A model generated the notes under the pieces. It was not told the origin of the DNA. It searched no databases and was given only the letters and a program-made list of their open reading frames with translations. A stretch of DNA of 43,708 nucleotides, the filler included, from Jimgerdemannia flammicorona (lineage: Eukaryota), in assembly GCA_003990765.1 (NCBI GenBank). It is 2 parts of 2 records of this genome, joined end to end, with 100 filler letters (N's around TTAATTAATTAA, not from the genome) between each part and the next. Parts side by side here need not be neighbours in the genome. Positions count along the whole stretch, not along the records: positions 21,905 to 43,708 come from RBNJ01001391.1; 1 more part is not named here. One strand, given 5' to 3'. The position numbers and the translations under genes were made by a program. Shown here one piece after another: positions 19,636 to 43,465 of this stretch. How positions within the stretch are numbered: the first letter of the stretch is position 1; the number at the start of each line of letters is the position of its first letter.

Positions 19636-19637
19636 TT

Positions 19638-19655
19638 TGGGGGCTCAACTGGGAA
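19638..19655 (+). promoter_or_regulatory. Primer-binding site, tRNA-Pro type
   Basis: TGGGGGCTCAACTGGGAA lies 2 nt after the LTR and resembles the tRNA-Pro PBS TGGGGGCTCGTCCGGGAT with both CpGs decayed. Confidence 0.75.
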
Positions 19656-21548: not shown

Positions 21549-21557
21549 TGGTGAGAG

Positions 21558-21804: not shown

Positions 21805-21904
21805 NNNNNNNNNNNNNNNNNNNNNNNNNNNNNNNNNNNNNNNNNNNNTTAATTAATTAANNNNNNNNNNNNNNNNNNNNNNNNNNNNNNNNNNNNNNNN
21901 NNNN
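21805..21904. other. Artificial scaffold linker (44 N + TTAATTAATTAA + 44 N)
   Basis: Symmetric 100-nt spacer whose core has stops in all six frames; an assembly artefact. Confidence 0.95.
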
Positions 21905-24176
21905 CAACCCCTTCTCAGCCAGCAGGGAGGAGTTAAGGCACCAATGTCCAGGTCCATCTCCACTCCCCCCAAACTGCCCCTGCCCCAACAGTCCCCAATG
22001 ATCAGACCATGGGCACCACTCCACCCCCAGCACCTTCCAAACATCTAAACCCCAACACTCGGCTGTCAGAATCCAGTCAATCCTCGTACCTAAGCCATTC
22101 ACCCAATGTGTATAGACCCTGGAGTCACCCCACCTAGATCTGCCCATATCCCCTAGGGAACTCAGCTTCTCCACCTCCTCTCATGCATCCAGACCCCCAC
22201 TTCTCCCCCCTGCACTCCTCCCTCCATCAGTTCTGTCTAGATGCTGATCCCGAACCATGTTAAAGTCCCCACCGAGAACATCAACTCCTTCCTCCAACAG
22301 AATACCCTCCTCCAGTAGTTCCTCAATGTAAGAGGGTTACTTTTTAGGGTGACCGTTACGTAGTTCTGGAAAGGTTTTCTGGATATTCTGGATGTTCCGG
22401 AAGACCGTTTTCTTATAGTCAAGATCAATTTCATATGGAGTATGTCCTCTATGCTTATTGATTTCAAGATTGGGTTGACGTCTCAACCAAAGTCCTTCTT
22501 TGGACTAGTTCTGGATGTTCAGGATTTTCCATATTTCAGGAAGTTCAAGAAACTAAGACCAGCTTAGTTAAATTGGCATATTGCTGTAGACAATACCCAA
22601 TTAGAAAATTTCGTGATAGGGTTAGGAGTAGGACCTAACAGAGAGCGGATTTACTTAAGAGTGGTTTGTGGGTTATGAAATAGATTTATTTGCTATTCAT
22701 GATATTGCTATACTAGGAGTATTTGTGTAAAGGGATATTGTGGGGAAGTGCTCAGGAGTTGTGTTCGGATTGTTCAAGTCTGAGATTCTGAGGTCTGGGG
22801 GAGGGGGTATTTATACTAGTGAGGGGCTATCTGGACTATGCTGAATATGGATGTAGCACTAAGTGCCTTGCTGAGTCGGAATGCAGTCACGTAGTACAAG
22901 TGTGATCTGACATGTCAAGAGATCGTCTGACTGCTGAGTCAGTTCACAGTCATATCGTATAAGGCTAATCTATCTATACTATGACTGCTAGGCTATTTAT
23001 AGGTTTAGGCACTATCTGGGTAGTCTTTGATGACATCACTATTGATGACATCATCACTGGCAAAGTCTGAGCAGTTTTCTGACTTCTGATATCATCAGTT
23101 TTCAAGATGTCATCACTTCTATCTCTTATAAGATTAAGACTGTCCTTGGTGGCGGTGGTTGTACAAGGATAACAGGTCTTGGTTCTCTTTTTTTTTGGTC
23201 TGCTGGCGCATTTGCGAGGACTGGCCATTCTCGTCTAGGGCGAGGGCTCCCAATATCGCGGCTGGGGGTTCGAACCTCTCAGAAATGATATTTTCTGTAA
23301 TCCGAGGCAATTTCTAGTAGTAATATCTATCACATGGATGGCTTGAGATTGGTTTTGACGTTGTCGGCTTTCTTGAGTTCAGATGAAGTATCCGTCACTC
23401 TCCAACGGAGGTGACACAGATAAAGCGAACAGAGTTATTCAAATGTGTTTTGCTTCTACTGAGTAATGAGGTCTTGTATAGTCACGGTATATCTTGGTCT
23501 TGAGTTGATAAGTACAGTTCGTGAACCTTTTGATGGGTGAGATAGGGTTCTTCTTGTCTTTGATTTGAGTTTGGTACTTTCGGTTTCTTTTATAATAGTA
23601 CGGAACACCAAACTAGCTATAGTAGTTCAGAGTCAGTCTTATGGTTGTAGTACTTCTTCTAGTATTCTTGTATCTTGGCAGTGGGTTCTCGTGCTTGCTG
23701 GTGTATTTGTGTAACCAGATGATCTCTTCGGTAACTTGTTTTGTAGTCTTGCATGTGGTTTCCAAATTAGTTCTGAGGATACCATGCGATTTTAGTGGCT
23801 TGGAGGTTGTGCGCTTACACTCAATCCACACAATCCTCTCTCCCCTAACCACAGGGCAATAGCAAGAGCCAACCCTCACCGGCTCCCACCCCGGCTGCCG
23901 CCAATCACCCCAGACCAAATGATCACCCCAGTTCTTGATTCCCTCCAAGTCTCCTCTACCCTTCCTCACCAGAATCGCCACTTTTCCAAACCAAGCAGTA
24001 GCTCCTCCCCATTCCCTAGTCCACTCTATATGATCACTCTCATCCTCACACCGAACATCCTGTAGTAAAAAGAGATCAGCCCCCAATCCCTTGAGCCAAG
24101 TAAAAATGCTTTTACACCTCCCTGATCCCTGCAACCCATTCACATTCAACGAGAAAATGTTAGTTGTACTATTCAT
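21905..24176 (-). pseudogene. LINE ORF2 AP-endonuclease, split by the solo LTR at 22327-23819
   Basis: IFSLNVNGL, DLFLLQD, CYCP, then after the insertion LGGDFN, YTHW, TRIDWIL, WSDH, WCLNSSLL. Confidence 0.92.
22327..23819 (-). mobile_element. Solo LTR related to family B (1493 bp)
   Basis: TGTAAG...CTTACA termini and perfect 5-bp TSD CTCAA (22322-22326, 23820-23824). 22327-23040 and the last ~70 nt match B LTRs; the middle differs. Confidence 0.93.
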
Positions 24177-24208
24177 AAGGAATAATGTTGAAAGAGCGAT
24201 CCCATCAT

Positions 24209-26247
24209 CTACAAGTCCACATTCTGCTCCTCCTGCACCAAGTCCGAGTCATGCTCAGCAGCCAGTTCCCTTTCCCCAGCATCCTGCGCCTCCAGCCCTT
24301 TCAGAAGTTCTACCATTGCCCCATCTTCTTTCTCCTCAAAGTCCTCATGATACTCCATGCAAGCCTCCTGCCAGAACTGCAGACCACGATGCTCCGCCCA
24401 ACAGTAGGCTGCCCGCTCACCTGCAACCACTACTAGCTCTGTCTTCCTCACCTCATCAATCTCATATCCCTCCTCCTCCAAGAGGATTGCCAGAATCTCC
24501 ACCCCCAGTGCCTCCATCACTCCATTGCCACGCAGAATACTCGCCCAGTGTTCCTCAGGCATTACCTGCAGGTCCACATCCCCCAATGCCTCAGCCGCAA
24601 GGTTATCCATCACCTTGCTCAACCACAGCAAGTTTCCCACCTCCTTCCCTCCCAGAGTCCCCGGCCACCCAGCATCCAACATCGTGGTATCAGTACCTAC
24701 ACTGGCAGCCTCATCCCATGCCTCCTCAGGGACGTCCACCAGCTCATCCTCCCAACTGCCACCACCTGGCCCCCTTTCGCCACATCTGGGACCCCAAAGG
24801 TAACATGCTGGGCCCCCTGCATCTGTACATCTTCCGCCACCACTCTCTGCCCCACCGGGCCCCTCCTGACTAGAGGGGGGGGAGTGCCATCAGACTTTGC
24901 CTCCCAAACTTCGAAAGTACCATCGGCATAGGGATCTCTGCCCAGCACCTTTGCAGCCCATTCCTCTGTCCCCACCACCTCCTTCCCTCCTTCGCTAGCC
25001 CATACACTGGCTTTGACGCCTCCAGACTCCACAGCCCCATCCACCTTCCTCTTCTCCCCTCCTGTCATACTCGCCAAGAGCTCCCTCTGCCTCTTGTGGC
25101 CCTGGGCCCTCTCCCACTGCTTCTTATCAGTGCGCACACGCTTCCCATTCACAATCTCCAGATGCGTCGACTCCTCAAATAGCTTCCAGACTTTCATCCT
25201 CCTCTCCACAGCCCCACCCAACTCCTCCAGCACCTCCAACAAGTCCTCCTCCTCTTCCTCACTCCCCTTTACCCTTGACACCTTACAGACGAATGCCCCC
25301 CACATCAGTACTGAGGGCCAGTCACTCATCTTCCCCATGGCCTCCTTCCCTGCCAGCCGGATCCTGACATCGACATTGCCCATCCTGAACGTAGTCCCCT
25401 CCCACACCTGAAATCCAACATCCACCACATCACCATACTCCACCATCACCTCCTCTACCCTCTTCCTAGTCTCCTCCTTAGACACTGTGGGCACCCCCCT
25501 CACCAGAAGCTGCACCACCCTGGGGTCCCACCTCAAGCACTGCACCATGGGCACCACCACCTCTCCAACTATAACTCCAGTCTTCAGGGCCTCATCCAGT
25601 GGGCCCACTTCCTCAAAGCCCACCTCAACCCCCTCCAAGCCCTTCAGGAACTTCACTGAGGCAGTCTCCGCCACTTGCTTCGAAATCAGTCCCAGAACCA
25701 TCCTTGCCGTCACCGCCAAGCCCCAGAAGCACAATGTGACCGCGAACTCCGAAATCGATTTCTTGAGCAACAGGGCCACCACCAGCCCCGTTACACCATC
25801 CGCCAGGTCCCCCTCCTACATCGGGAACCCCTGACCCCCTTGGCCATCAGCCATCACATCTCTTTTTTTTTCCCTATTCGCCGTCACACCCCCATTAGCA
25901 GTCCCACCCCCAGCCACAGCTCCTCCAGACCCTACGCTCATACCTCCAACCTGAGGACCACCCCCCCTCCCAAGGCTCACCTTGCCCTTCCCCACAGCAG
26001 CACCAGCCCTGTCTCCAGCCCTGTCTCCAACTGGCCATCCACTCCCCTTCACCTTGTTAGCAAAGCTGGAGGGGCCAGCCCATCCCCTGTTACCACCCAA
26101 CACCGGTTCTCCTCCAGAGCCCTCTCCGTCTTTCGATCCTCCAAAGGCCCCCATCCCCAGGCCAAAACCCCTCCCTACCTCCTGCCAGCCGAAGGCCCCA
26201 GCTCCCTCCGACCCAGTACGCCTGTCGGAACTCTTGCTTGAAGACAT
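24209..26247 (-). pseudogene. LINE ORF1 (~680 codons; premature TAG at 25816, frameshift near 24750)
   Basis: ORFs 25816-26247 and 24697-25782 share a frame. RRM-like segment VVQLLVRGVP...VMVEYGDVVDV...GNVDVRIRL. Ends 32 nt before ORF2. Confidence 0.8.
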
Positions 26248-26314
26248 GTTGATAGTACCTTCTCTCCTAGTAGTGTCGAAAACTGTTGCTTGAAGTCTTG
26301 TGTAATGTGAATTG

Positions 26315-26873
26315 TGGTATTCAGGAGTTGTTGTATGTTTGGATTGTTCAAGTCTGAGATTCTGAGATCTGGGAGAGAGGATATTTATGCTAATGAGAAG
26401 CTATCTGAACTATACTGAATATGGATATAGTACTTAGTATCTTATTGAGTTAGTTCACAGTTATATTATATGAGGCTAATCTAACTATACTAATAACTGT
26501 TAAGCTATCTATAGATTTATACACTGTCTGAATAGTCTTCAATAACATTACTATCAATAATATTATCTCTAATAAAGTAGTTATTTAGGAAGAACAGTTC
26601 TCAGATTTCTTCTCTCTATTTGCTCAGATAAAGATCTCATCACCATCCTACAGAATGTCATCATCTGTCTCATATACTAGATATGGAGTTGGTGGGTGAA
26701 GGAGGAGTATATCATCTTTGCTTTTATCAGATTCACTATCTGCATACTTTTTATAAATTATAGTACTATATATTGCTGAGTTGTAGTAAGCTGGTAGCTA
26801 TTATTCATATCACTCATACTCAGATAGTGGGGTTATAGGTTTGATCTTAAGGGTTGTCTGGAGGTATAGCTTA
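26315..26873 (-). repeat. Older B-family LTR fragment, left part (target of element B)
   Basis: Aligns with ~27295-27910 and continues at 43466-43708. Confidence 0.85.
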
Positions 26874-28901
26874 TGTAAGAGGGTTGCTTTTTAGGGTAAC
26901 TGTTACATAGTTCTGGAAGGGATTTCTGGAAGTTCTGGATATTCTGGAAGACTGTTTTCTTATGGTCAAGATCAATTTCATATGGAGTATGTCCTCTATA
27001 CTTATTGATTTTAAGATTGGGTTGACATCTCAACCAAAGTCCTTTTTCAGACTAGTTCTGAATGTTCAGGATTTTTCATTTTCAGGAAGTTCAAGAAACT
27101 AAGACCAGCTTAGTTGAATTGGCATATTGCTGCAGACAATACCCAATTAGAAAATTTTGTAATGGAGTTAGGAGTGGGACCTAACAGAAAGCAGATTTAC
27201 TTAAGAGTAGTTTGTGGGTTATTAAATAGGTTTATTTACTATTCATGATATTGCTATACTAGGAGTAGTTGTGTGAAGGGATATTATAGGGAAGTATTCA
27301 GAAATGTTCTTATGTGTTTGAGTCTGTTCAGGTCTGAGATTCTGAGGTCTGGGGGAGGGGGTATTTATGCTAGTGAGGGACTATCTGGACTATACTAGAT
27401 ATGGATATAGCACTTAGTATCTTGCTGAGTCAGAATGTAGTCATGTAGTACAAGTGTGATCTGACATGTCAAGAGATCATCTGACTGCTGAGTCAGTTCA
27501 CAGTCATATCATATAAGGCTAATCTAACTATACTATAACTACTAAGCTATTTATAGATTTAGGTGCTGTCTAGGTAGTCATCAATAATATCATCTCTAAT
27601 GAAGTAGTTATATAGGAAGAGTGGTTCGCAGATTACTTCTCCTTGTTCACTGAGATAATAATACATTGGAACTTTGTCACCATCCTATAGGATAACATCA
27701 TCTGTCTCATATACTGAATAAGACATTAGTGGGCGAAGGAGTGATATATCATCTTTGCTTTTATCAGATTCACTGTCTGCATACCTTCTATAGATTACAG
27801 CACTATGAGTTACAGGGTTATAGTAAGCTAGTGGCTGTGGTTCATATTGCTTGTACTCAGGTAGTGGAGTTGTTGGTTCAATCTCAAGGGTTGTCTAAAG
27901 GTACAGGTTGTATTCTTCAGTCTCTTCATTATAGTTGAAGTAATCAGGGGTGAATGTAGGTTGGTATTCATGCCAGTGGTCATTGTCCCAATAAGTCTCA
28001 TATGTAGTTATAAACTGTTATAAGTTCATCAGCAGGGTTGGTGGTATGATCAGGGTTGGTAGAGATCCTTGGCTTGAGGTCATGACATGTCAAAGGGATC
28101 ATTGTCTTCTGCTTCATCTTCATCAAATTAGATTATATCATAGACATCCTTCATAGCATATCCAACTTAGGGCATTTGCAGGATGTAGTTGTTGGGGTGT
28201 GGAAAGATTCTGTCAGTAGTCTGGACATACTCAAGATACTTGTGGTTGAGTTCTTGTATCATGTTGTCGATTTGGCCATAGGACAGAGTAGTAACCATTT
28301 CACTGATAATAACTTAGAGGTGGGGAATAAAGGTACTGTACTCATAGAAGAGTTCTCTATATTTGCAGACAATGAGCTTCTAGTGTTGAGATATCTAGGT
28401 AATATCTATATCATAGTAGTGTTCGACCATGTCTTCTAGGAGGCAGTCAATTTGGTAGTAGCTTGAGATTTGTCTGATTCAGTGAGCCTTGCTAAGCATG
28501 TTCAGGGTATTCTATCAGGCTTTCACAAAGTAGAGGGGTACTAAGCTATGGATATTCATGAGGGGCAGAGGGGGTGTGGCTCAGTTGACAATGGCATTCC
28601 AAATGTTAGCACAGATGCAGTTGTAGATTTCAGTGGTCATGTTTGTATACATATGTTCAGAAGTTGTAGTTGTTGTTTGTTTTGGTTCGCTGTTTCGATG
28701 TGCCTTGGTACTTGGTATATATACATTTGGTCCTGATTGGTCAGATTCTGTATATGAATCTTGTGTTCTGTGACTTTATATTGACTCAGCTTTGTATGCT
28801 GTGACTTTGGTTTGACTCAGCTTTGTAATCTTGCAGGTGATTTCCAGATTTTTTCAGAGGGTGACATGTGATTTTGGTGGCTTGGAGGTTGTGCACTTAT
28901 A
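26874..28901 (-). repeat. 3' LTR of element B
   Basis: tgtaagaggg...gcacttata, adjacent to the minus-strand purine tract AAGAAGGGGAGAGT; colinear with 41438-43465. Confidence 0.92.
27559..28640 (-). pseudogene. LTR-encoded ORF of unknown function, 3' LTR copy
   Basis: Starts MTTEIYNCICANIWNAIVN; homologous to 42124-43206, with a net 1-nt loss near 28085. Confidence 0.65.
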
Positions 28902-29349
28902 ACTCTCCCCTTCTTAGCTTTTGATGTCCTCATCAGGGCTTCTAATTTTGTTCTAGTATTGTTACACTGTTTGGGAGGTCAAAAGTCCAGTAAGGTCTAT
29001 TTTTTTCAGAAAGTGGTATACTTATAATACAGTTGTCTAATACATTGGATTCATATATTAAAGGGTTGTGTGTTCAATGCTGTATGCCAGAAGTGATTCT
29101 GATGTCATTCACTGCTGGAGAATTTCCTCTAAGGAATCTTCTTAAATGTCTATGTCTCATTTCCCACCAGTGATATGGTGAGAATAGGCTGGCTTTCAGT
29201 TTTGCTATTTTTTTAGAGAGTCGGTATTCTTTTGTCTTGACTTGCTGAGTTCTTAATTTGATTGATGATAATTATATTATTCAGGAGGGTAATATATAGT
29301 ATGTACTTATAGGTGTTGGAGTATTCAGATTTCAGTTGTTTAAGGAATC

Positions 29350-30690
29350 ATATTCCTGAACTAAGTCAGTAGTATTCTGGAGATTGGTCTTGGGTTCCCA
29401 GGTTGTATCATGGATTGGATAACCTTTCCATTTGACAAGGTACTCAGGGTGGTTCTTGTGGCTATGTTTGTTGAGAATTTGTTCAACTTTGTATTCTTCC
29501 TGGTCATTAATAATGACAGGTACAGGTGGTTCTGTGATTCAGTTTGGGAATAGTTCATCATCATTGTCATTATATCACTTGAGATGTTAGACATTGAAGA
29601 CTGAGTAAATCTTAATGGTGTCTGGTAGTGCTAATTTGTAGGAGGTCAGAGAGACTTGTGCAATGACTTCAAATGGTCCAATGAACTTGCTGTTCAGCTT
29701 TGTAGATAGTCTGTGCTTGAGGTTGTCAACTCGGTATCATCAGATGTCTAGTAGAACTTTTTCTCCAATATCAAAGGTTTCTTCTCAGCAGTGTTGGTTA
29801 ACATACTATAACTGTTGTTCTTGAGCTCATGATAAATTCTCAGTGGCAATCTGACTTAGATTGCATATTCAGAGCAGGAATTCTTCAACAGCTTCGACTG
29901 TGGAGAGTTCATCAGTAGTTCAGATAAGTGTGAGAGAGGTGTTTGGGCTTTGTTCAGTATTGTTGAAGAATGGGGTCATTCTAAGAGAGGCTTGCTTTCT
30001 GTTATTATAGGCAAACTCAACTGCAGTGAGGTGTTCATGCCAATCATCTTGTCTGTAGGAGACATAGTTCCTTAGTATTTATTCTAGAGTCTGGTTCATT
30101 CTTTCAGTTTGGCCATCAGTTTCGGGATGAAAGGCTGTGGATAGTGCAAGTTTTATTCCAAGGTGTGCATGGAGGGCTTTCCAAAAATGGCTAGTGAATT
30201 TTGGGTCTTAGTTGCTAATAATGATCTTAGGAAGACCATGATAGCAGAAGATGTTGTCAAACAAGAGTGTAGCTATATCTAGTACTGTTGCAGTAGTAGT
30301 AGTTAGCACAAAGTAGGCTTGTTTGCTGAGATAATCTATGAAGACAACAATTGCATCTTTCCCATTCTTGGTTCGGGGTAGTTATATAATGAAGTTCATA
30401 GAGATTTGTTCCCAATTAGCAGATGGTACTAGGATAGAGTGGAGTAGGCCAGGTTTTGCTAGTGTTGAGGACTTATTCCATTGACAAGTGTTATAGGAAG
30501 TGATGTAGGTCTTTAGCTGATCTGCCATACAGGGCCAATAGAAGTTTCAGGAGATAACTTCATAGTATTTATCAAATCCTAAATGTCCAGCAGTAGGCAT
30601 ATCATGACATTTGAATAGGATGGTCCTTCAGAGATCTCAGTTGTTTGGAACATACAATCTGTCCTTGTAGTAGATAGCATTGTCCTTCAG
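29350..30690 (-). pseudogene. Integrase plus chromodomain of B
   Basis: [46 protein letters not shown]...EYLVKWKGYPIHDTTWEP. Confidence 0.92.
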
Positions 30691-30849
30691 TTAGTATTGA
30701 TAATATTGAGTATATTTGTCAGCATTGTCACTGCTGAGGATTTCTCAGAGTGCTTGAGCTTCCTTATTATTAATACATGCTATGATAATTTGTTCCATGA
30801 TGGAGTTTGTAACCAGGATAAGAGTTTGGATAACTTCTTCAATTGGTAG

Positions 30850-32170
30850 TCTTAAGATTGCATCAGCAACAATATTTTCCTTACCAGGGCAATATTGAAT
30901 TTCATAGTCAAAGTTGGTAAGGACTTTCATCCATCTGGCTTACTTTCGAGAAAGGGTAGCCTGTGTCTTGATGTTGACTAATAACTTGTAGTCAGTCAAT
31001 ATAGTGAAGTGTACTCCTTCTAGGTATGGTTGCCATTTGTTCAGAGTGTCTACAATGGCTAGCATTTCCTTCTCGTGAGTTGTGTAGTTGATTTTGGTAT
31101 CATTGAACTTGTGAGAGTGATAGGCCACAGAGTGTCCTTCTTGCATGAGTACTGCTCCAAGAGCTAGGTTAGAGGTATCAGTAGTAACTTCATATAGTAG
31201 GGCAGAGTTTGCTGCTTGAAGTACTGGAGTGGTTATCAGGGCATCCTTTAGTGCTTGAAAGGTAGTATCTTACTCAGGTCCTCAATTCACAAGATTGTTG
31301 AAATCTTTCTCTTATTTCATAGTCCAGAGCTGTTCTTCTTTCTTATTATACTTGGTCATTTGGGTAAGGACAGTGGCAATTTTAGCAAAGTTGGCAACAA
31401 ATCACCTGTAATAGTTTGCTAATCCCAGGAATGACTGGAGGTCTTTCAGCTTCTTGAGTCTGGGCCAATCCTTAATTGTGGAGATTTTGCTGAAGTTTAC
31501 TTTAATTCCATTCAAAGTGATAATGTGTCTAAGGAATTGAATTTCCTTTAGAAGGAATTCACACTTGCTGAGTTTTGCAAAGAGTCAGTTTTCTTAGAGT
31601 TTCAGTAGTACTAGTTCAAGATATTCAAGATATTCCTCCAGGGTTTTGCTGAAGACTAGGATGTCATTGATGTAGACAACAACAAATTTGTCCAGGTATG
31701 GGTACAGGATAGTATTCATCAGAGTCTGGAAGGTTGCAGGAGTATTAGTTAAGCCAAAGGACATAACCAGGAACTTGAAGTATCCATAGTGGGTTCAGAA
31801 GGCTGTCTTGTAGATGTCTTCTTCTTTCATGACAATTTGCCAGTAACCATTTCATAGGTCAAAAGAGCTCATGAATTGTGGGTTGGTAAGCCTATCAAAT
31901 ATTTCATCAATTCTTGGTAGTGGACAATAGTTCTTGATGGTCTGTTCATTGAGGTCATGGTAATCAATATATATTCACAGATCTTCTTCTTTCTTGACAA
32001 TAAAGAGGACTAGTGCACTATAGGGTGATATACTGGGTATGATGAATTCTTGTTCTAGAAGTTCATCAATTTCTTTCTTGAGTGCATCAATTTCTCTTGG
32101 CAACATGTGGTTGATTGACTTGAAGGCTGGCTTGGCATCTGAAATAGTCTTGATGGTATGGTCTACTGCT
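30850..32170 (-). pseudogene. pol: RT plus RNase H of B
   Basis: [28 protein letters not shown] (31663-31674, decayed YIDD), FLGLANYY, NYTTHEKEMLAIV, GKENIVAD. Confidence 0.92.
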
Positions 32171-32449
32171 CATTTAAGAGGTAGGCCTTTTAGAAGCTTC
32201 TTTGGGAATATATCTCAGAATTTCTGGAGTAATAGTCTGACATGACTGTCAACTTTGGAAAAATCTTCTTCAGAGTTCTCAGGTTCTCCTCTGGATAGGC
32301 AGATGGAGATGGCAAAGAGAGGGCATTTCTTGGCCAATTTCTTGAGCTATAACTTGTTGATATAGGTGATCTTTGGTCTAGGATCAATAGGACTGAGTGG
32401 GTCCTTTTCACCTTACAGTTTGAAGTTGTGGCATCCTTTCTTGATAGTT

Positions 32450-32765
32450 AGAGAATGGTTTATCCAATCAATCATAGGGTTCTCTTGTTTCAACTATAAA
32501 GTTTCAAGAATGATCTCATTGTCAGGAAGTGGTACAATTTGGGGGGTAACATGTACTTGATAGTCACTAATTCAGAAGGGTAGATTGCAGACTTCCTTGC
32601 TAATGACATGTGAGGTTCTATCAGCTGTGGCAACTGCTTGAGTTTGTTGTACCAGGGAGGTGAAGACCTTGAGTCTGTTGGCTGTTTCTTTATTGATAAA
32701 GTTGCCTGAGGCATTGCTGTCTATTATAATCTTGACAGGAGCTCGGTTGACAAAAGCTTAGAGTG
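32450..32765 (-). pseudogene. Protease of B
   Basis: VKIIIDSNASGNFINK (decayed DSG motif). Confidence 0.75.
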
Positions 32766-32989
32766 TAAGCAGTTTGTCTGATCCAATAGTAGTAATTTTG
32801 GTTATAGGAGCTTTCCTTCTGTTGGTTCTTCTTTGAGCTAGTTCGTTGACATAAGAGAAGCAATCATCAATTATTTGGGAAGAGTACATTCTAATGCCAT
32901 GGGGGTATCAGCCACTTGGTACATATCTGTCTTTGATTTTCTTGTAGAATTGTTCTTCTTTGTTCATGGTAGGTTGGGCTGGGGCCTTG

Positions 32990-33402
32990 TTTGATGAACC
33001 AAATCCTTTAGATCCTCAGATAGTAGGTAGTAGTTCAGAGACTTCCTTGACTGTCAGAGTTGACTCAATTTCTCAAATAGGATCTGGGTAATACAGAAAC
33101 CTATGGGAATCTTAAAGGGTGTCCAACTGTGGTTTCAGATAAGGACAATAATTTCGCCTATATAATCTTCATCAATGACTCCTCCTTCTACTGAGAGTCC
33201 TTTCAATGCTAGGCTGCTGCGACAGCATATTCTTCCAACATGTCCTTCAGGGATTTGGATGCTGATTCCTGTATAGACTTGCTTGACTTCTCAGTTGGAG
33301 ACTGTAGCTTCTTCAGCTGCATACAGATCATATCCAGCTACCTTTTGACTTCCTTTGGTTGGGGCCTTAGTAGTTTGCCTTAACTTGACAAAGTACAGTA
33401 TT
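32990..33402 (-). pseudogene. dut: dUTPase of B, between gag and PR
   Basis: APTKGSQKVAGYDLYA, TGISIQIPEGHVGRI, GGVIDEDY, *GSKGFGSS. Confidence 0.9.
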
Positions 33403-33439
33403 CTGGTAGTCAGGTTGTGCAGAGTAGTAACAGTTGCTC

Positions 33440-34420
33440 ATGTTGTTGTTTGGGGTTTTCGGTTGGGGCAGACACTGGCCATGTATCCTGTCTTTCAGCA
33501 ATAGAAGTATGCTCTGCTTCTTCAAAGTTCATTCCTTTCTCCTTCAGTGAGTTTCTTGAAGGTACTTGGCTGGATGGGTTCATGATTTCTGAGTGTTTAT
33601 GAGAGAGCTCAGGATGCATCATGCTTGGGTTCTTCTTTCTTAGTCCAAGTCTTTTCCTTGTTGTTGAATTGTCTTCAGGGCAGAATGGGTCCAGCTGTTA
33701 GGATTCACTTGACCATAGTCTTGATTCTTGCCAGGCACCATTATTGGTGATCACAACCAACTGGGTGGCCTTGTTCTCAGATTTTTCTAGTAAGTCATTC
33801 AGGCAGGGTATCAAATAAATGGTCTGCTCTTGTACCATTTCATGCTTCATCATTGGTAATATATCCTAGGCCAACAGTATTCAAGAGTAACTTGAGTTTT
33901 GTATAGAAGATTTTGAATTCTTCTTTGCTATGTATATCGAATTTGAGGTTGTGGAGTTTTACTTGAGATTCAGCAATCATGGTTTCACTGTAGTATTGAG
34001 CAATCATGAGTTGTTTGAGTCCAGGGGCTGCAGGATGGACTCTATATCCTGGGACATTGTTTGCTACATTCTGAGCAACTACTGCAGATCAGGTGTCCCA
34101 TGTGAGGGATTTTTCAGGAAGAGTTCACCACCATTCTTCAGTGGGTCCTCAGAAGAATGTAACAACTTGGTGGACATAGGCTGTAGTAGTAGCAAAGAGT
34201 TGTTCCAGAGTGTGGTCTTGATTGTTTGTCAGAAGGCAGTCAGCAACTCACTCATTGGTCTATTGATTGGCTTTAAAGTTGGTGTCAACTATACTAATAA
34301 AGCTTTGGACTTCTTGTGCAGTACCATTGAAGGTAGGTAGGCTCAGATTTTTGGTAGATTAGGTCTGTTCAGCTAAGGCAGTAATGGTTGCTACCATTAT
34401 GGCTACCTGGGCTGTAAGGT
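33440..34420 (-). pseudogene. gag: gag core of B with decayed CCHC knuckle
   Basis: LPTFNGTAQEVQSF at the start; YFYC*KTGYMASVC near 33460-33510. Confidence 0.75.
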
Positions 34421-35113
34421 CTAGAATCTGTTAGTTTGTCATATTGTTTACTGGAGGCAGTTGGAGTACTGGTAGTAGTGTTACTGGTACTATTTGAGGT
34501 ACTGGTACAGAGTGTAAGGGTGTTCCTTGAGTCTGTGTAAGTTGCTGGAGTAATAGTTGTGGGTCTGGAGTAAGGGCTCGATAGATAGCTGTTTATTACT
34601 GTGTAGGTATATTCTGGCCTGATGGAGGTGCATCTCCTTTGATAGTATATCTGGGATCAAATTTACTGAGATACTCCTCCTCCTCCTCTTTGGTTTGGTC
34701 CTTGTGTAATTGAGTTTGCTTGGCATCAAAGTAGACAAAATCAGTTGTATATCTGATTTCAGATGGACTTAATTCAAAGTCAAGTTCTGGTTCAGTATTG
34801 GTTTCAGGTTCAGGTAGAGCTATAGCTGGGCCTGCTTCTAGTTCAGGGTCAGATTGTTGATGAAGAGTTTTTCTTACTTTTTCCTTAAGGATATGCCGGG
34901 CCTTACTGTTCTAGAATCAGTAGTATAATGCAGTCTTAGTTCTGGTACAGTGAAAGTTGGTAGAGTTGAGCCACTTAGCTATAGAGACTTGGGCTTTGTG
35001 AGGAACTAAGGCTAGAAAGACTGCTGCTGGTTGTTCTAGGTCACTTGGATTTGTAGAGCTGACAAAACTCTTGTTGAGAAGAGTAAAGAAGACTTCTATA
35101 AGACCTTCTTCAT

Positions 35114-35517
35114 TGTAATGGTTCTAGTTTCTAAATGAGGAAGCAACTAGTTCTGGTGGTTCTAAGTAGCTTGAAGAGATACTTAAAGATTCAAGTGTTC
35201 TTAAAGAATTTCTGGGAGAAAATATTCTGAGACTTTATTCATGTGAACAAAGGGGATATTTATACAAGATCTGAAAGAAGGATCCAGAAGGATCTGAGAA
35301 ATCAAAGGAAAATGCCAAGAGGAAAGTTCTCAGTAAAGATGACAAATGATGACAAATAAAGTTCTACAAGTTTCCAGAATATTCAGTGACTAGCTAAATA
35401 AGTACTAGAGGATGCTCGGCATCAAAAAAGGATTTCTAAGTATTTGGAAAGTACTGGAAGATCATAGAATATTGAAAAAAGACAAAGAAAAGAAATAAAC
35501 TATACTAAAATATTACA
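35114..35517 (-). repeat. 3' LTR of C
   Basis: TGTAAT...ATTACA; minus-strand TATAAATA at 35257-35264 and AATAAA near 35235. Confidence 0.95.
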
Positions 35518-35849
35518 TCTCCCCCTCCTTAAGAATCAATGTCCTCATTGAATTCTCAAAGTTATATATAATAAACAATAAGACTAAAAGAAACTTCAAA
35601 TTAAATGTATCAACTCATTGGTAAGGATTGGTCATCTTTATATAAGGCAAGGGCCAAAGTATCATCTTGATTGGACAAGAACTGGTTTGAACCTCATTAG
35701 TTGCAGGATTTATAGGGTTTTCCTATATCTTTTATTTCTGATACTGTATCCCTTAGAGAGCTCTGATACATAATATATCTGATCAGCACAGTAGGTTATT
35801 TACTATTCAAGGGGAGAACCTTACAGGCAGTCAATAAGTTCCTTTTTTC

Positions 35850-37175
35850 TCAAACTCTTAGATGAGGTCTTGAGAGTTCTTGAGATTGGTGGCAGGTTTC
35901 CAGATGGTATCATATTTAGGGTAATTCATCCACTTGACTAGATATTCTGTGTGACAGTATCAGACTTGTTTGTCTAAGATTTTCTTGACTTCATACTCAA
36001 TGTGGTCTTCAACTATAACTGGTACTGATGGTGTCAGAATTCAGCCAGAGTATGGGGGTGACTGGTTCTAGGCCTTAAGTTGTGATATATGGAATACTGG
36101 GTATATATACATGGTTGTTGGTAAGTTGAGACAGTAAGACCAGATAGAGACTTGCTCAGTAATCTCAAAGGGTCTAAGGTACTTGGGCTGGAATTTGGCT
36201 GACTGGTGGTTGACTTGAGATTGAGCCTTGATGTTGTTGGCTTTGAGTAGAACCATATCACTAATATTGTATATGACATCTTACCACTTCTTATCTACAT
36301 ACTTAGCTTGATGTTGCTAAGTCTTTTATAGGTTCATAGTAGTGATCTTGAGAAGAGAATCCATTTTGTCAATAAGATTCTGGGCTGTGAGGACTTGAGT
36401 GTGACTGGATTGCTGGAATTGGACTAGGCTTGCAGAGGTCTCAGGGTTTTGACTATGAAGTAGCTGGAATGGAGAAAGGCCAGTTGATGATTAGTTGGCA
36501 TTATTGTAGATGAACTCAGCATAGGTCAGATAGTGGTCCCAATTGTCTTGCTCATAAGACACATAGTTTCTGAGTATTTTTTTGAATGTTCTGTTAATTC
36601 GCTCAGTCTGTCCATCAGTTTGAGGATGGAAGGCAGTGAACATAGCAATTTGGATTCCAAGGGTCTTGAAGAGTGCTTGCCAGAAGTGAGTTGTGAACTT
36701 GGGGTCGCAGTCACTGATAATTACTTGGGGGAGTCCATAATGGCAGAAGACAGTCTTGAAGAAGATTCTTACAATTTCTGGAGCAGTAGTATTGATTGTA
36801 GTTGGCTCGGCAATTGTAATCTTAATGAGATGGTCCACAAATATAACAATGGTATCATAGCCTGTTTTGGTTTATGGGAGTTGTACAATGAAGTCCATTG
36901 TGACTTGTTCAAACTTCTTGGTTGGAATTGGCAGGGGTTGCAGAAGACCAGCAGGTACTTAGTTGCTTGACTTGTTTCTTTGGCAAAGATCACAGCTTTG
37001 GACATACTTCTTGATTTTCTTGAGCATGTTTGGCCAGTAGTAGTCTCGTTGGATATTCTTGATGGTCTTCTCAGTTCCAAGGTGACCAGCTAGTAGGGAA
37101 TCATGATGTTCATGAAGAATTTTGTACTGTAGTTCAGGGTTAGCAGGAATATATACTTTATCTTGATAGTACACG
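35850..37175 (-). pseudogene. Integrase plus chromodomain of C
   Basis: HEHHDSLLAGHLG...CDLCQRNK, TAFHPQTDGQTERINR, PKYLRPF, EYEVKKILDK...EYLVKWMNYPKYDTIWKP. Confidence 0.93.
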
Positions 37176-37299
37176 AGGTGGTCCTTGATGGTATACCTTT
37201 TCTTGAATTTCTTGGTGTTCCTTTGTAGAACCAGAGAGTCTTATTCATATGCCTTCTTGATCTGATTCAGGAATTCGAGTGCCACAGTGACTTGTAAAA

Positions 37300-38680
37300 T
37301 TACAGCAAGGTCAGGTCTTCTTGAAAGTATATCTAGTATGACTAGAGTTTTGCTGGGCTTATAGATGATGTTTGGGGTAAAGGTCTGAAGTAGTTGACTC
37401 CACTTGGCTTGTTGGCGAGAAAGGGTTAATTGAGTATTGATGTACTGAAGGGATCTGTGATTGGTGATCACATCAAACTCAACTCTTTCTAGGTAGTGTC
37501 ATTAAGTCTTGAGGGTATGTATGATTGCCAGGAGTTCCTTTTCATGAGTAGTCAGCTTTTGTTTGGCTGGGGACAATTTTCTTGACTCAAAGGCAATAGG
37601 TCAGTATCCTTGACCATCATCTTGAGAAATGACTGTACTAATGGCAAAGTTAGATGCATCTGTAGTAACTATGAACTTCAAGTTTGGGTCTATATTTCTC
37701 AGGACAGGTGCATGGGTCAGGCAGTTCTTGAGTTCTTGAAAAGCTTATTGACAGAAAGCATCCCAGATATAGGAGACATAGAGGTTAGAGTTGGGTTCCT
37801 TTCACAGAAGGTTTGTCAAAGATTCTGCAATACTAGAGAAGTTCTTGACAAATCAATGGTAGTATCCAGCCAGACCAAGGAAGGATCTGAGTTCAGTGAG
37901 GTTTGCTGATACAGACCACTGTTCAATGGCTTGTATTTTCCTTAGGTCTACTTGAATTCCTTTGGCTGATACAATGTGTCCAAGGTATTCAACTTGATCC
38001 TTGAAAAATTCACATTTCTTGAGCTTTGCATAGAGCTTGTTCTTGCAGAGGATCTTGAGGACTTATTCAATGTGCTTGAGGTGTTCTTCTTCAGTGCTAC
38101 TGAAGATCAGGATGTCATCAATATATACAAGTACAAAGATATAGAGCTGATCCTTGAAGACAGTTTGCATGAGATCTTGAAAGGTTGTTGGCACATTGGT
38201 GAGACCAAAGGCCATGACTAGAAATTTGTAGAGTCCAAAGGGTGTCATGAAGGCAGTCTTGGGTATATCTTCTGGCTTGATTCGAATTTGGTGATACCCA
38301 GAGGTGAGATCAATCTTGGTAAAGTACTTTGCATTTTTGAGAGCATCAAAGATTTGATCTATGAGCAGTAGTGGGTAATGGTTCTTGACTGTGATCTTGT
38401 TGAGTGCTCAGTAGTCTATACACATTCACAGAGTATTATTCTTTTTCTTGACAAATAGGACTGGAGAACTAAAGGGTGACTTGCTTGGCTGAATGGCTCC
38501 TCGCTTGATGAGTTCATTGAGTTCCTTCTTGACTACTTCAATTTTGAGTGGAGATATACAGTACATTTTCTTCTTAGGTATAGCTGCATTAGCTACCAAC
38601 TTGATTTCATAGTCATAGTCTCTTGAAGGTGGTAGACCAGGTAGTTTGTCCAGGAAGACATCCTTGTACTTGTTCAGCAG
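37300..38680 (-). pseudogene. pol: RT plus RNase H of C
   Basis: KIDLTSGYHQIRI, TPFGLYKFLVMAFGLTN, YIDD at 38114-38125, VTTDASNFA, THEKELLAI. Confidence 0.94.
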
Positions 38681-38859
38681 TAACTTGATGCTTTCACTAA
38701 TTGATAGCTTCTTGTCTTCTTTCTTTGGTCAGATCAGTGTTATAAAGGCACAGGTAGCTTTCTTGAGGGCCTTCTTGAACTGAATTGCCAAAAGGGTAGC
38801 AATTGGGGTTTTCATCTGAGTCTTGTCTGGCTTGATGGTAATGTTGGTTCCATCCTGAA

Positions 38860-39190
38860 TCAGAGTGACTTCATTCTTGGTTCAATCAATCTGAGGGTTG
38901 TGCCATATAAGCCAGGGTTTGCCTAGGATCAGGTTATGGTCTCCTAGTGGTGCTACCTTGAAATCTAAATGTTCCCAGTATTTCTGGATCTTGAGGGGAA
39001 GTTTAGCAGCAATTGAGTCGATTGGTAAGGTGGTGCCATCTACAGTGACAACTCCACCATTCTTGCCAGCTAGTTTGGTAATAATCTTGAGCTTGTCAAT
39101 GAGGTTCTTATTGATGAAGTTCCCAACAGCTCCACTGTCTATGAGAACATCTAGCTCTTGTCCCTTGACTAGACCTTTGAAAATGAGCAT
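38860..39190 (-). pseudogene. Protease of C
   Basis: VLIDSGAVGNFI...NLILGKPWL. Confidence 0.92.
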
Positions 39191-39223
39191 TGAATTGGCT
39201 CAGTTCTTGGCTATGCTTGCAAC

Positions 39224-39645
39224 TTTATCAGTGCTGCCAAAGCCTTTCTGATCTCACTTGGTTGGAGACAGCTTGGTGACTTCTTTGATGACTGGTAGGG
39301 TGGCTTGCTCCAGAATGAGCTGTGCAATTCTGTCACCTTCATTGACAGTGTATGGTTGGTTCTTGTGGTTGACTAGCAGGACTTGCATTTTACCTCAGAA
39401 GTCAGAGTCAATGACTCCAGCACCAATATCCAATGAGTGCTTGAAACTGAGGCCAGATCTTGGTGCAATCCTTGCATAATGTTCCTTGGGAATTTTGACT
39501 GAAAGGCCAGTTGGAATGAGCCTTCTTTTATGTGCAGGAATAGTGACTTGTTGTACTGCTTGAAGGTCCAAACCAATGGCTCCTTCTGACTGTGCTTGAG
39601 GGATCTGGGCCTTAGGGTTGACTCACATGAAATTGAGTACAACTT
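39224..39645 (-). pseudogene. dut: dUTPase of C, between gag and PR
   Basis: GAIGLDLQA, PTGLSVKIP, RIAPRSGL, GAGVIDSDF*G, GDRIAQLI, KGFGST: all five motifs, in-frame TGA stops only. Confidence 0.94.
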
Positions 39646-39699
39646 CTTGTTCAACTGGTTGACCTTGGGTGTCTTTGGACAGGACCAGAATCCTCTTTA

Positions 39700-40670
39700 G
39701 TTCAGCAGTTTTCTTGGGACATTTGGTTGCAATGTGACCAAGCTGATGGCAAAAGAAGCAGGCTCCAGCCATCTTGTGGTGCTCCTTTTCCTTGGGTGTA
39801 AGCTTGCCTTTCTTGTTCTTGTCAATGGTGTCTAGGTTCATGGGGGTAGGTCCAACAGTTCTGACTTTGGGTTCCTCCCTTTTGTGGTTGTTGTTGAAAG
39901 GCAGTCTCTTCTGTTCGAAGTGGTGACCATAGATGATGACATCAAATCTGTTAGCAATCTTCATTGCTATATCTAGGTCCCTGGGCTCTTCTAGTTTGAC
40001 ATGAACTTGGGTTTGACCTTTCAGGCCTCAGATGTACTTGTTAACCTTCTCATCTTCAGTGATATGTAGTAATTCTAACAGGATTGATAAGAATTGTGCA
40101 TTGTATACTTATATAGACTTGAGTTGTTTGACATTTGCCAGACAGTTTTGTGCAGTCTTGGTGCTATTGACTGGTTTGAATTGGTCTTGAATGGCATCAG
40201 AGAATTCATTTCAGGTCCTGATCCAGCCAGTAAATCTGGTATTCTGAACATGGTTTTGCCACCAGATTGTAGCATTCTCTCAGAGGAGTGTGGCAGTGAA
40301 TTGGACTAATATTGCTTCTTCCAAATTAGTCAGTTCTCCATATTGCTCTAATTGGAAAAGCCAGGCATCAGTAGACAGTCCTCCTCTTTGACCATCAAAA
40401 GTGTCAGGCTTCTGAGGCTTGATAGTGACTGCTGTCAGGTATATTGATATCAGTGGGGGTGCAGAGGTATGAGCAGGGGCCTTGCTTTCCTTTCTTTCTA
40501 TGTATTCTTGAAGTTGAGCAATCTGAGCTAATATGGTCTATAAAAGACTCTTGATGGCCCCATTTGACTGAGTAGGGTTTTGCTATTCCTCTTCTTCTTG
40601 CTGATTATATGAGACATTGCCTGGACCATAGGTACTGTATGAAGGGTTCTACCTATTGTCCTCCATAGTG
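39700..40670 (-). pseudogene. gag: gag of C with CCHC zinc knuckle
   Basis: KPDTFDG, GPTPMNLD, CFFCHQLGHIATKC. Confidence 0.88.
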
Positions 40671-40720
40671 TTGTAACTGATATCTTGAGAGGTGTCTTGA
40701 TAAGGCTAGGTGTAACTTAA

Positions 40721-40732
40721 CTGCTGCTACCA
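40721..40732 (-). promoter_or_regulatory. PBS of C, initiator-Met tRNA type
   Basis: TGGTAGCAGCAG 2 nt after the 5' LTR; TGGTAGC complements the 3' end of eukaryotic tRNA-iMet. Confidence 0.8.
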
Positions 40733-40734
40733 AG

Positions 40735-41138
40735 TGTAATGGTTCTAGTTTCTAAATGAGGAAGTGACTAGTTCTGGTGGTTCTAAGTAGCTCAAAGAGA
40801 TACTTAAAGATTCAAGTGTTCTTAAAGGATTTCTGAGAGAAAATATTCTGAGACTTTATTCATATGAACAAAGGGGATATTTATACAAGATCTGAAAGAA
40901 GGATCTGGAAGGATCTGAGAAATCAAAGGAAAATACCAAGAGGAAAGTTCTTGGCAAAGATGACAAATGATGACAAATAAAGTTCTATAAGTTTCCAGGA
41001 TATTCAGTGACTAGCTAAATAAGTACTAGAGGATGCTTGGCACCAAGAAAGGATTTCGAAGCATTCAGAAAGTACTGGAAGATCATAGAATATTGAAGAA
41101 AGACAAAGAAAAGAAATAAACTATACTAAAATATTACA
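40735..41138 (-). repeat. 5' LTR of C
   Basis: Ungapped match to 35114-35517, same length. Confidence 0.95.
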
Positions 41139-41422
41139 TTCATCTTGACTTGCTGGGTATAGAGCAAGGAGTTTGGTGAATAGGGTTTCACCTATTTGCT
41201 GATTTAACTGGAGTATTTCTTTCTTCAAATGAAATTTGTCCCACTTTTTGCAGGTGTGGAGGTCAAATTATCCTTATATGTCAGGTTCAATTCTCTCCAG
41301 ATTGTCAGATGGTTCAGAATAAATTCCAGTTCAGAGGTTGGGCTTTATACTAACTTATAGGAATTCTCAGAGGGGTTTGTAGCGGGGTGAGGAAGCATCT
41401 TGAAGTGGAATTGGATTGTAAA

Positions 41423-41434
41423 CCACTACTATCA
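41423..41434 (-). promoter_or_regulatory. Decayed PBS of B, iMet type
   Basis: TGATAGTAGTGG next to the LTR; transitions alone convert it to TGGTAGCAG. Confidence 0.55.
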
Positions 41435-41437
41435 AGT

Positions 41438-43465
41438 TGTAAGAGGGTTGCTTTTTAGGGTAACCATTATGTAGTTCTGGAAGAGTTTTCTGGAAGTTCT
41501 GGATATTCTGGAAGACTGTTTTCTTATGGTCAAGATCAATTTCATATGGAGTATATTCTCTATACTTATTGATTTCAAGATTGGGTTAATGTCTCAACCA
41601 AAGTCCTTTTTTGGACTAGTTCTGAATGTTCAGGATTTTCTATATTTCAGAAAGTTCAAGAAACTAAGACCAGCTTAGTTGAATTGACATATCACTGCAG
41701 ACAATACCCAATTAGGAAATTTTGTAATGGAGTTAGGAGTAGGACCTAACAGGGAGCAGATTTACTTAAGAGTGGTTTGTGGGTTATTAAATAGATTTAT
41801 TTGCTATTCATGATATTACTATACTAGAAGTAGTTATATGAAGAGATATTGTGGGGAAATATTCAGGAATATTCTTGTATGTTCAAGTCTGTTCAAGTCT
41901 GAGATTCTGAGGTCTGGGGGAGGGGATATTTATACTAGTGAGGGGCTATCTGGACTATGCTAGATATGGATATAGCACTTAGTACCTTACTGAGTCAGAA
42001 TACAGTCACATAGTACAAGTGTGATCTGATATATTAAGAGATCATCTGACTGCTGAGTCAGTTTACAGTTATATTATATAAGGCTAATCTAACTATACTA
42101 TGACTGCTAAGCTATTTATAGATTTAGGTGCTGTCTGGGTAGTTATCGATAATATCATCTCTAATGAAGTGGTCATCTAGGAAGAGTGATTCACAGATTA
42201 CTTCTCCTTATTCACTAAGATAATAATACATTGGAACTTCATTACTATCCTACAGGATAGCGTCATCTGTCTTATATGCTGGATAAGGTATTGGTGGGTG
42301 AAGAAGTGGTGCATTGTCTTCACTTTCATCAGATTCACTATCTGTATACCTTCTATAGGTTATAGCACTATGAGTCACAGGGTTGTAGTAAGCTGGTGGC
42401 TGTGATTCATATTACTTATACTCAGGTAGTAGAGTTGTTGGTTTGATCTCGAGGGTTGTCTGAAGATACAGATTGTGTTCTTCAGTCTCTTCATTATAGT
42501 TGAAGTAATTAGGGATAAATGTAGGTTGGTATTCATGCCAGTGGTCATTGTCCCAAAAAGTCTCATATGTAGTTATGAACTGTTGTAAGTTCATCAGCAG
42601 GGTTGGTGGTGTGATCAGAGTTGGTAGAGATCCTTGGCTCAAGGTCATGTCAGTGTCAGAGGGATCATTGTCTTCTACTTTATCTTCATCAAATCGGATT
42701 ATATCATAGATGTTCTCCATGGTGTATCCAACTTGGGGTATTTGTAGGATATGATCATTGGTATATAGGAAGATTCTGTCAGTAGTCTGGACATACTCGA
42801 GATACTTGTGGTTGAGTTCTTGTATTATGTCATTGATTTGGCCATAGGACAGAGTAGCAATCATTTTATTAGTGGTAACTCTGAGGTGGGGAATAAAGGT
42901 GCTGTACTCATAGAAGAGTTCTCTATGTTTGCAGGTGATGAGCTTCTAGTATTGAGACATCTGGATAATATCTATATCATGGTGGTGTTCAACTATATCT
43001 TCTAGGAGATAGCTGATATGGTAGTAGCTTGAGATTTGTCCAATTTGGTGAGCCTCGCTAAGCATGTTTAGGGCATTCCATCAGGCTTCCACAAAATAGA
43101 GAGGTGCTAAGCTATGAATATTCATAAGGGGCAGAGGGGGTGTGGCTCAGTTGACAATGGCATTCCAAATGTCAGTATGGATGTGATTGTAGATCTCAGT
43201 AGTCATATTTGTGTATATTCAGAAGTTATGGTTATTGTTTGTTTTGGTTCTCTGTTTCGATGCATCTCAGTGCTTGGTATATATGTATTTGGTCCTGATT
43301 GGTAAGATTCCATTTGTGTGAATCTTGTGTTCTATGACTTCATGTTGACTCAGCTTTATGTGCTGTGACTTTGGTTTGACTCAGCTTCATAATCTTGCAG
43401 GTGATTTCCAGATTTGTTCAGAGGGTAACATGTGATTTCAGTGACTTGGAGGTTGTGTGCTTACA
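41438..43465 (-). repeat. 5' LTR of B
   Basis: TGTAAG...CTTACA, 2028 bp; minus-strand TATAAATA at 41927-41934. Confidence 0.93.
42124..43206 (-). pseudogene. LTR(U3)-encoded ORF of unknown function, ~360 codons, 5' LTR copy
   Basis: One frame from ATG 43206 to TAA 42124, containing ORF 42412-42864. Internal stops are transition-type, and two read CAA (Gln) in the other LTR. Confidence 0.72.

Follow-up and report, generated by a model that had tools for sequence, protein, structure and literature searches.

A reading frame of 361 codons was found inside the long terminal repeat (LTR) of a Ty3/Gypsy chromovirus in a stretch of 43,708 nt from Jimgerdemannia flammicorona (assembly GCA_003990765.1), referred to below as the window. 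The frame (positions 43206-42124, beginning MTTEIYNHIHTDIWNAIVN) runs in the sense of the element and contains six internal stop codons. We consider it, with a probability of about 75%, to be the mutated remains of a real protein-coding gene located in the U3 part of the LTRs of this chromovirus family. An earlier note on this DNA had proposed a U3 gene of this full extent. The part of that proposal covering codons 115-361 was sustained by an uninterrupted relative, by insertions and deletions that respect the frame and by an excess of synonymous changes indicative of selection, while codons 1-114 lack this backing. All features described lie on the minus strand, which is the sense strand throughout.

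The reading frame and its copies

Translation of the LTR reproduced the frame, here named copy A, with stops at codons 20 (TGA), 42 (TGA), 87 (TAG), 265 (TAA), 319 (TAG) and 333 (TAA) in addition to the terminal TAA. The frame lies between the 5′ end of the LTR and its TATA box (TATAAATA; 41934-41927), located 190 nt past the stop codon of the frame. The position of this TATA box, and that of an AATAAA polyadenylation signal at 41801-41796, place U3 at approximately 43465-41900, so that the frame is wholly contained in it; R starts near 41900 and U5 extends to 41438. The first methionine codon (Met1) lies 259 nt into the LTR and is preceded by a stop in the same frame, five codons away, and a further methionine codon at position 115 (Met115) is 601 nt inside. 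The supported core of the gene comprises codons 115-361 (42864-42124).

The recurrence reported earlier for the 3′ LTR and, in part, for an older LTR was borne out. The copy in the 3′ LTR (copy B; 28640-27559) contains 12 stops and has lost 1 nt at codon 185. A third copy (copy C) belongs to an older LTR of the same family into which the chromovirus inserted: the sequence at 43706-43466 resumes at 26868-26446 once one copy of the target-site duplication is removed. Its upstream half (43706-43466), cut by this insertion and by the end of the window, holds codons 166-245, and its downstream half (26868-26520) holds codons 246-361, with an in-frame insertion of 15 nt and a deletion of 10 nt. Since the gene is inside the LTR, each integration provides two copies of it.

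The frame is depleted in stop codons. Over the 361 codons it contains seven, as compared with 21 and 49 in the other two sense frames and with 13, 27 and 30 in the antisense frames. Among 5,000 shuffles preserving dinucleotide composition, the frame with the fewest stops out of three had 22.3 of them on average and at least 11 in every case, and not one shuffle came down to seven. When only codons 115-361 were considered, the count was 4, versus 14 and 39 in the other sense frames.

An uninterrupted relative of the predicted product

A search of 5.8 billion clustered proteins detected a single match (1 of 262 near-length candidates), an uninterrupted protein of 247 residues encoded on a public contig of 998 nt and named here P0001. 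It matches the core of the frame from end to end (42864-42130 by tblastn). BLASTP aligned it to codons 115-359 with 60% identity, 80% positives and an E value of 4e-99, with gaps of only 2, 2 and 5 residues. The start of P0001 coincides with that of Met115, and it terminates, like the LTR frame, in a YPDS tail. At the positions of the last three stops of copy A it has Gln, Trp and Asn, and the 15-nt insertion in copy C falls exactly where P0001 carries five extra residues.

Apart from P0001, an exhaustive search of 1.84 billion representatives yielded only a weak stretch in P0002 (E = 2.6e-4, 36 residues of a Lys/Leu-rich protein of 2,078 residues), which was judged unrelated. An alignment-based search among proteins of shorter length gave no relative among 166 candidates, and a near-length search started from P0001 recovered only P0001 itself among 81 candidates. 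Pattern searches for related loci in metagenome, viral and genome contigs gave 589, 150 and 115 matches, respectively, none of which was confirmed, and a 26-nt pattern from the LTR had no match in metagenome contigs.

Selection between LTR lineages

The two LTRs of an element are identical at insertion and diverge only afterwards, and differences between copies A and B are thus uninformative on selection. A selection test based on the two LTRs of one element was rejected for this reason. Within the frame, A and B differ by 139 transitions and six transversions, the latter distributed 3/2/1 over the first, second and third codon positions, a pattern of post-insertion decay. Copy C, however, derives from a separate insertion, and the differences that distinguish A and B from C include evolution along active lineages. 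As decay has consisted almost entirely of transitions, transversions were chosen for the analysis.

Transversions between copies A and C were distributed 0/4/14 over the three codon positions. At 12 sites, A and B were identical and C differed by a transversion; 10 of these sites were third positions (P = 5e-4). Nine of the 12 changes were synonymous, as against 13.7% expected from all possible transversions in the 192 codons considered (P = 2.5e-6). This synonymous excess, together with the in-frame insertion in copy C, indicates that a reading frame was maintained over codons 166-361, at the minimum, when these were already in the LTR. Purifying selection acted on the last 247 codons at least. 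Only for codons 115-361 were all three signs of a gene seen together: an intact homologue with matching ends, insertions and deletions in frame, and an excess of synonymous changes.

Decay of the copies

The three copies in the window are dead, owing to C>T and G>A transitions, mostly in CpA or CpG contexts, and to small deletions. Transitions account for 96% (139/145) of the differences between copies A and B in the frame. Over the whole LTR, 167 of 230 A/B transitions lie in an apparent CpA context, and 14 CpG remain in copy A; this CpA/CpG split is rough, because a former CpG in which both bases have mutated is scored as CpA. The pattern fits decay of repeats by a process resembling repeat-induced point mutation or by mutation of methylated cytosines, and the same decay would have generated the TAA, TAG and TGA stops.

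The earlier proposal that the stops can be explained by C>T and G>A changes agrees with these data: the stops are of that type. The two stops that had been said to read CAA in the sister LTR correspond to codons 265 and 333, and the His/Cys pairs noted between copies were located at codons 8 and 10. Copies A and B, with six and twelve internal stops, share four (codons 20, 42, 87 and 319). Twenty-eight codons are stop-prone, being in at least one of the two copies either a stop or a single transition away from it; with independent hits, 2.57 shared stops would be expected among them, so that four are no excess (P = 0.19).

Contigs of this family were recovered from four public runs (X1, X2, X3 and X7), in which 2,902, 308, 433 and 435 contigs, respectively, aligned to the LTR at 80% or above. 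The variant readings that follow come from the best-supported 40 of 595 variant rows. Relative to the window copy, most family contigs show A>G and T>C changes on the plus strand, which indicates that it is the window copy that has mutated. A TAG at 42252-42250 is indeed common to copies A, B and C, and the earlier note had regarded the persistence of such stops as potentially fatal to the gene. At 42251, however, this TAG is replaced by TGG in X1 (24 contigs, depth 203.6 of 223.2) and in X3 (7 contigs, 40.7 of 40.7). As TGG is found in most contigs of these two runs and parallel hits suffice to explain the stops shared by both LTRs, the TAG was rejected as proof of an ancestral break and does not count against the gene. 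At 43149, the TGA of codon 20 is CGA in X1 (9 contigs, depth 355.4 of 559.4), X2 (12.9 of 12.9), X3 (34.1 of 66.4) and X7 (2.4 of 5.82).

Two observations hint at the longer frame. One is this stop at codon 20, which is a sense codon in most of the related contigs; the other is that seven of the nine listed variant sites between 43206 and 42865, a selected subset, are at third positions.

The predicted product

P0001 has an isoelectric point of 4.05 and a net charge of -36, with 10.5% Asp, 9.7% Pro and 9.3% Tyr and no Cys. It has no hydrophobic segment (the highest Kyte-Doolittle mean over 19 residues was 0.97). The gene product is accordingly predicted to be a protein of approximately 29 kDa, very acidic, rich in Tyr and Pro and probably disordered, in line with the acidic, Tyr/Pro-rich composition first described for it. 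That it is unlike gag, pol or env also held: Pfam assigned no family to the read-through frame (E values up to 1) or to P0001 (E values up to 10), and a sequence search of the PDB gave nothing significant (best E value, 0.084). The Atlas entry for P0001 offered no usable feature match.

The C-terminal tail contains units of acidic and hydrophobic residues of the form D-x-(V/I)-I. Two such units are present in copies A and B, and three in copy C, in P0001 and in a further LTR of the window, variant D, described below; the tail is the only part of the gene shared with variant D. The tail may resemble an acidic activation domain.

The carrier element

The repeat that contains the frame is a true LTR of a Ty3/Gypsy chromovirus. 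Self-comparison of the window paired 41438-43463 with 26874-28899 at 87.9% identity over 2,030 aligned columns, and the alignment added two bases to each, giving a 5′ LTR of 2,028 bp at 43465-41438 and a 3′ LTR at 28901-26874. The LTR is of the TG..CA type: it starts with TGTAAG (TATAAG in the 3′ copy) and ends with CTTACA. A polypurine tract (28922-28903) directly abuts the 3′ LTR. The element is flanked by a 5-bp target-site duplication with one mismatch, read directly as TAATC upstream (43470-43466) and TAAGC downstream (26873-26869). No canonical primer-binding site was recognised directly after the 5′ LTR; a TGG begins 12 nt downstream.

The 12.5 kb between the LTRs contain two tandem sets of chromovirus domains, as detected with Pfam on read-through frames. 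The internal region of the outer element (28902-41437) is interrupted by a nested, younger chromovirus (35114-41139). The domains of the outer element, located at approximately 33367-29347, comprise dUTPase, protease, reverse transcriptase, RNase H, integrase and chromodomain, in the order RVP_2, RVT_1 (2.2e-20), RT_RNaseH (2.3e-26), Integrase_H2C2, SH3_Tf2-1 and Chromo (1.5e-14). For the nested element, Pfam reported the same set, with gag/Ty3 capsid, dUTPase, protease, RVT_1, RNase H, integrase and Chromo. The dUTPase domain lies between gag and protease in both elements. Paired TG..CA LTRs with a target-site duplication and a polypurine tract, and the order protease, reverse transcriptase, RNase H, integrase, chromodomain, are the hallmarks of a Ty3/Gypsy chromovirus that were found here. 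The nested chromovirus has LTRs of 405 bp (40735-41139 and 35114-35518) that are 95% identical, with a spacing of 5,621 nt. It lies within the outer element's leader/gag region and is also riddled with stops, the longest open stretch being at most 134 codons in the frame examined.

Another LTR in the window, variant D (22327-23819), shares its first ∼76 nt and its last ∼720 nt with the LTRs containing copies A and B, and has a different middle of ∼680 nt. Only the last 18 codons of the gene are present in it (23064-23005). In the middle of variant D, one frame shows 4 stops in 226 codons, versus 10 and 12 in the others; it encodes a basic sequence, which a frame shift separates from the shared acidic tail. 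This middle may be a second, different U3 cassette. Variant D also contains a string resembling a tRNA T-arm, on which ARAGORN and Rfam report nothing.

Alternative explanations

A frame of this kind could have arisen by chance from the composition of the strand and never have been a gene. The sense strand is G-poor and rich in A and C, and its G content of only 13.8% makes TAG and TGA less frequent, which favours long stop-poor frames; further, codons 1-114 barely surpass the other frames in their stop count. Against this, the shuffles came nowhere near the observed count, and composition would not provide an intact relative with the same ends, insertions and deletions in frame, or a synonymous excess with a P value of 2.5e-6. 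For codons 115-361, the shuffles, P0001 and the synonymous excess rule out a chance origin, and as an account of the whole frame it has almost no probability left. A fragment of a host gene could instead have been captured into the U3 of one LTR lineage, the coding signal being left over from its former life and of no benefit to the element. Variant D, indeed, reveals the middle of U3 to be an exchangeable cassette, nothing connects the protein with a retroelement function, and all copies in the window are dead. The synonymous excess, however, was seen between two LTR lineages with flanking LTR sequence in common, and must then have arisen after the gene entered the LTR. In addition, no host-gene family was found among the 1.84 billion representatives or the 5.8 billion clustered proteins, the only relative being a lone open reading frame (ORF) of 247 residues on a contig of 998 nt. 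We regard a captured passenger as quite unlikely. The frame could also be part of an independent, small cassette, mobile or recombining, which inserted into U3 and is now spread along with the LTR, and not be a gene of the chromovirus's own. LTRs of the A and D types share both ends and differ in a middle of 1.2 kb versus 0.7 kb, and the cassette of variant D also has one stop-poor frame. The break in homology, however, falls inside the gene, whose last 18 codons are shared, and there are no terminal inverted or direct repeats at the cassette borders; the repeats found are at 43325-43386 and 41990-42090 instead. A hitch-hiking cassette seems to us very improbable.

Several points weigh against the reading of the frame as a gene of this chromovirus family. 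The outside relative is a single one, and its DNA may lie inside or outside an LTR. Codons 1-114 are covered by neither P0001 nor copy C, and their depletion in stops is weak (3, versus 7 and 10 in the other frames), all three stops being common to copies A and B. The DNA identity between A and C is 75-80% in the gene region, compared with 82% in the adjoining non-coding part. Because all three copies are broken and four stops are common to both LTRs, the gene may have been dead in this element by the time of its insertion. Variant D has no more than the end of the gene, which makes the gene dispensable for the function of the LTR as an LTR. There is no confident fold: AlphaFold2 gave a mean pLDDT of 31.7 with an alignment of seven rows, and the Atlas model of P0001 has a pLDDT of 0.39; a function is thus left without an anchor. 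Finally, the promoter module considered in the following section and the activator-like tail are motif readings.

Possible routes of expression and role

Upstream of the frame, a 31-nt repeat occurs twice in tandem (43386-43325), with a TGASTCA site in each unit, and is followed by a TATATA at 43283-43278; repeats and TATATA constitute a candidate promoter module. Two 38-nt repeats, 63 nt apart and again each with a TGASTCA site, lie between the stop codon and the TATA box of the LTR (42090-41990). The upstream and downstream pairs are inverted relative to each other. The LTR with copy A contains five TGASTCA sites, as compared with about 0.5 expected (shuffles of the whole window gave a mean of 11.2 per 43.7 kb), and the four sites of the repeat pairs have persisted in the 3′ LTR (28782, 28813, 27426 and 27489) despite a divergence of 12%.

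If the frame is the remains of a gene, expression might have followed either of two routes. The gene could have been driven by a separate promoter located in the 5′ part of U3, formed by the TGASTCA repeats and the TATATA and mirroring the pair located before the main TATA box, and could have used the polyadenylation signal of the LTR. This is the route we favour, albeit tentatively and at somewhat less than even odds. With its own promoter and the polyadenylation signal of the LTR, each LTR, including solo LTRs, would be a small gene. Alternatively, expression could have been of the retroviral kind: U3 is included at the 3′ end of the genomic RNA, and the frame would have acted as a 3′ ORF, translated from a subgenomic or spliced message. 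By analogy with retroviruses, this is conceivable, though a little less so than the former route.

As for the role of the product, its composition would be compatible with a regulatory accessory factor, for instance an acidic activator or an antagonist of host silencing, an assignment that we consider doubtful. A broader idea is that the LTR itself was a self-contained transcription unit, with bZIP-type TGASTCA repeats and a TATA, an ORF of 250-360 codons and its own polyadenylation signal, producing an acidic, disordered trans factor for the whole family, with hundreds of solo LTRs forming a distributed gene family. Such a factor might, for example, activate the neighbouring LTR promoter or oppose heterochromatic silencing. 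As a whole, we hold this idea to be unlikely.

Among public runs recorded as RNA, none was listed with this stretch. In X2 and X7, which may be RNA runs, contig depth reached 1,839 and 9,145 below position 41894, versus 0-80 and 0-32 in U3; depth cannot rank the parts of the LTR, and these values do not constitute a finding. A few X2/X7 contigs fall on the frame (for example, 42571-42902), which is not evidence of its expression. Contigs of these two runs leave the LTR at 41562 and at 42571 into the same sequence of ∼29 nt, which suggests that one other repeat family has inserted into copies of this LTR.

Other features of the window

In the region 14518-15600, a 9-nt unit is repeated in arrays, which comprise two repeat families with 24 and 8 registered copies. 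There, each of the three frames on the plus strand stays open for 329-360 codons, with a GC content of 47-48% and a strong skew of C over G. Between the LTR copies, a GC-rich block (55-58%) at 24000-26400 shows open frames of 160-370 codons on both strands, rich in Gly, Pro and Arg; a Pfam search of 16000-26400 in six frames detected nothing. Two runs of N of 44 nt each, 12 nt apart (21805-21848 and 21861-21904), are present just downstream of variant D in the sense of the element, and could be an assembly gap or a masked stretch. A dispersed repeat, 81-82% identical between its two copies (95-571 and 20488-20967) and unrelated to the LTR studied, recurs at a distance of ∼20.4 kb. A tRNA scan and an Rfam search of the window reported nothing.

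Relation to known systems and implications

The closest parallel in arrangement is sag of mouse mammary tumour virus (MMTV), a superantigen ORF in the U3 of the LTR whose product, Sag, is a type II membrane glycoprotein. As in MMTV, the frame described here is a sense ORF of ∼250-360 codons, wholly contained in the U3 of an LTR of more than 1 kb, present in both LTRs and unrelated to gag, pol or env. MMTV, however, is a mammalian betaretrovirus, whereas the LTR gene belongs to a chromovirus and would encode an acidic product with no membrane anchor. Pfam, which includes the Sag family, gave no match to the frame or to P0001, so the product does not belong to that family. The nef gene of HIV and SIV, and bel2/bet of foamy viruses, are 3′ accessory ORFs that start upstream of the LTR and overlap U3. 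The frame shares with them the use of the 3′ end of the genomic RNA and of U3 sequence by an accessory gene; unlike them, it starts inside the LTR (259 or 601 nt from its end, depending on the methionine codon), in contrast to the upstream start of nef, and has no sequence similarity to them. The arrangement appears to work like that of MMTV sag, and less like that of nef, and the frame is a member of neither family. To our knowledge, protein genes inside U3 are otherwise known mainly from a few retroviruses.

Among LTR retrotransposons, those of plants have additional ORFs (aORFs), placed in the internal region (Vicient and Casacuberta 2020, PMC7264820). According to the portion of that article available, these resemble the LTR frame in being extra ORFs of Ty3/Gypsy elements of unknown function, often orphans specific to a lineage; the LTR frame, however, lies inside the LTR (43465-41438) and not in the internal region, where plant-type aORFs lie between LTR and gag or between pol and the 3′ LTR, and the accessible text of PMC7264820 has no LTR-internal phrasing. 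In Botrytis cinerea, Boty-like (BcGypsy1) elements carry an extra gene, brtn (Zhao et al. 2011, as cited in PMC8365987). Like the LTR gene, it is an extra gene in a fungal Ty3/Gypsy element; brtn is antisense, with no LTR location stated in the part of PMC8365987 at hand, whereas the LTR gene is sense and LTR-internal. Chromoviruses with a dUTPase have been described in Postia placenta, Phanerochaete chrysosporium and Tuber melanosporum (Novikova et al. 2010, PMC2864245). Like the carrier element in the window, they are chromodomain Gypsy elements with a dUTPase, and a legend in PMC2864245 also lists an ‘add. ORF’ of unknown function in some elements; in contrast to the frame studied here, no ORF is placed inside the LTR in the available sections of that article. 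The occurrence of such chromoviruses in fungi, the mutation pattern and the soil metagenomes that contain the stretch make a fungal host likely, whereas the Atlas counterparts of an integrase piece were a mixture of Streptophyta and Basidiomycota. In the literature covered, which excludes most subscription journals and in part consists of partial texts, no LTR-internal protein gene was found described for an LTR retrotransposon. Considering its position and sequence, we would classify the frame as a real LTR-borne accessory gene of an orphan protein family, apparently akin in arrangement to the accessory genes of LTR elements and to retroviral U3 genes.

LTRs are usually regarded as control regions that encode nothing and are masked ahead of gene finding, a view that a selected U3 gene would change. 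As the protein is an orphan with one relative in 1.84 billion representatives, the gene would mark a class overlooked by present pipelines. A gene in U3 would double at every integration, would survive in solo LTRs after loss of the element, and may adjoin the promoter of the element. A parallel to MMTV sag and nef so far from the retroviruses would point to the repeated use of U3 as a site for accessory genes.

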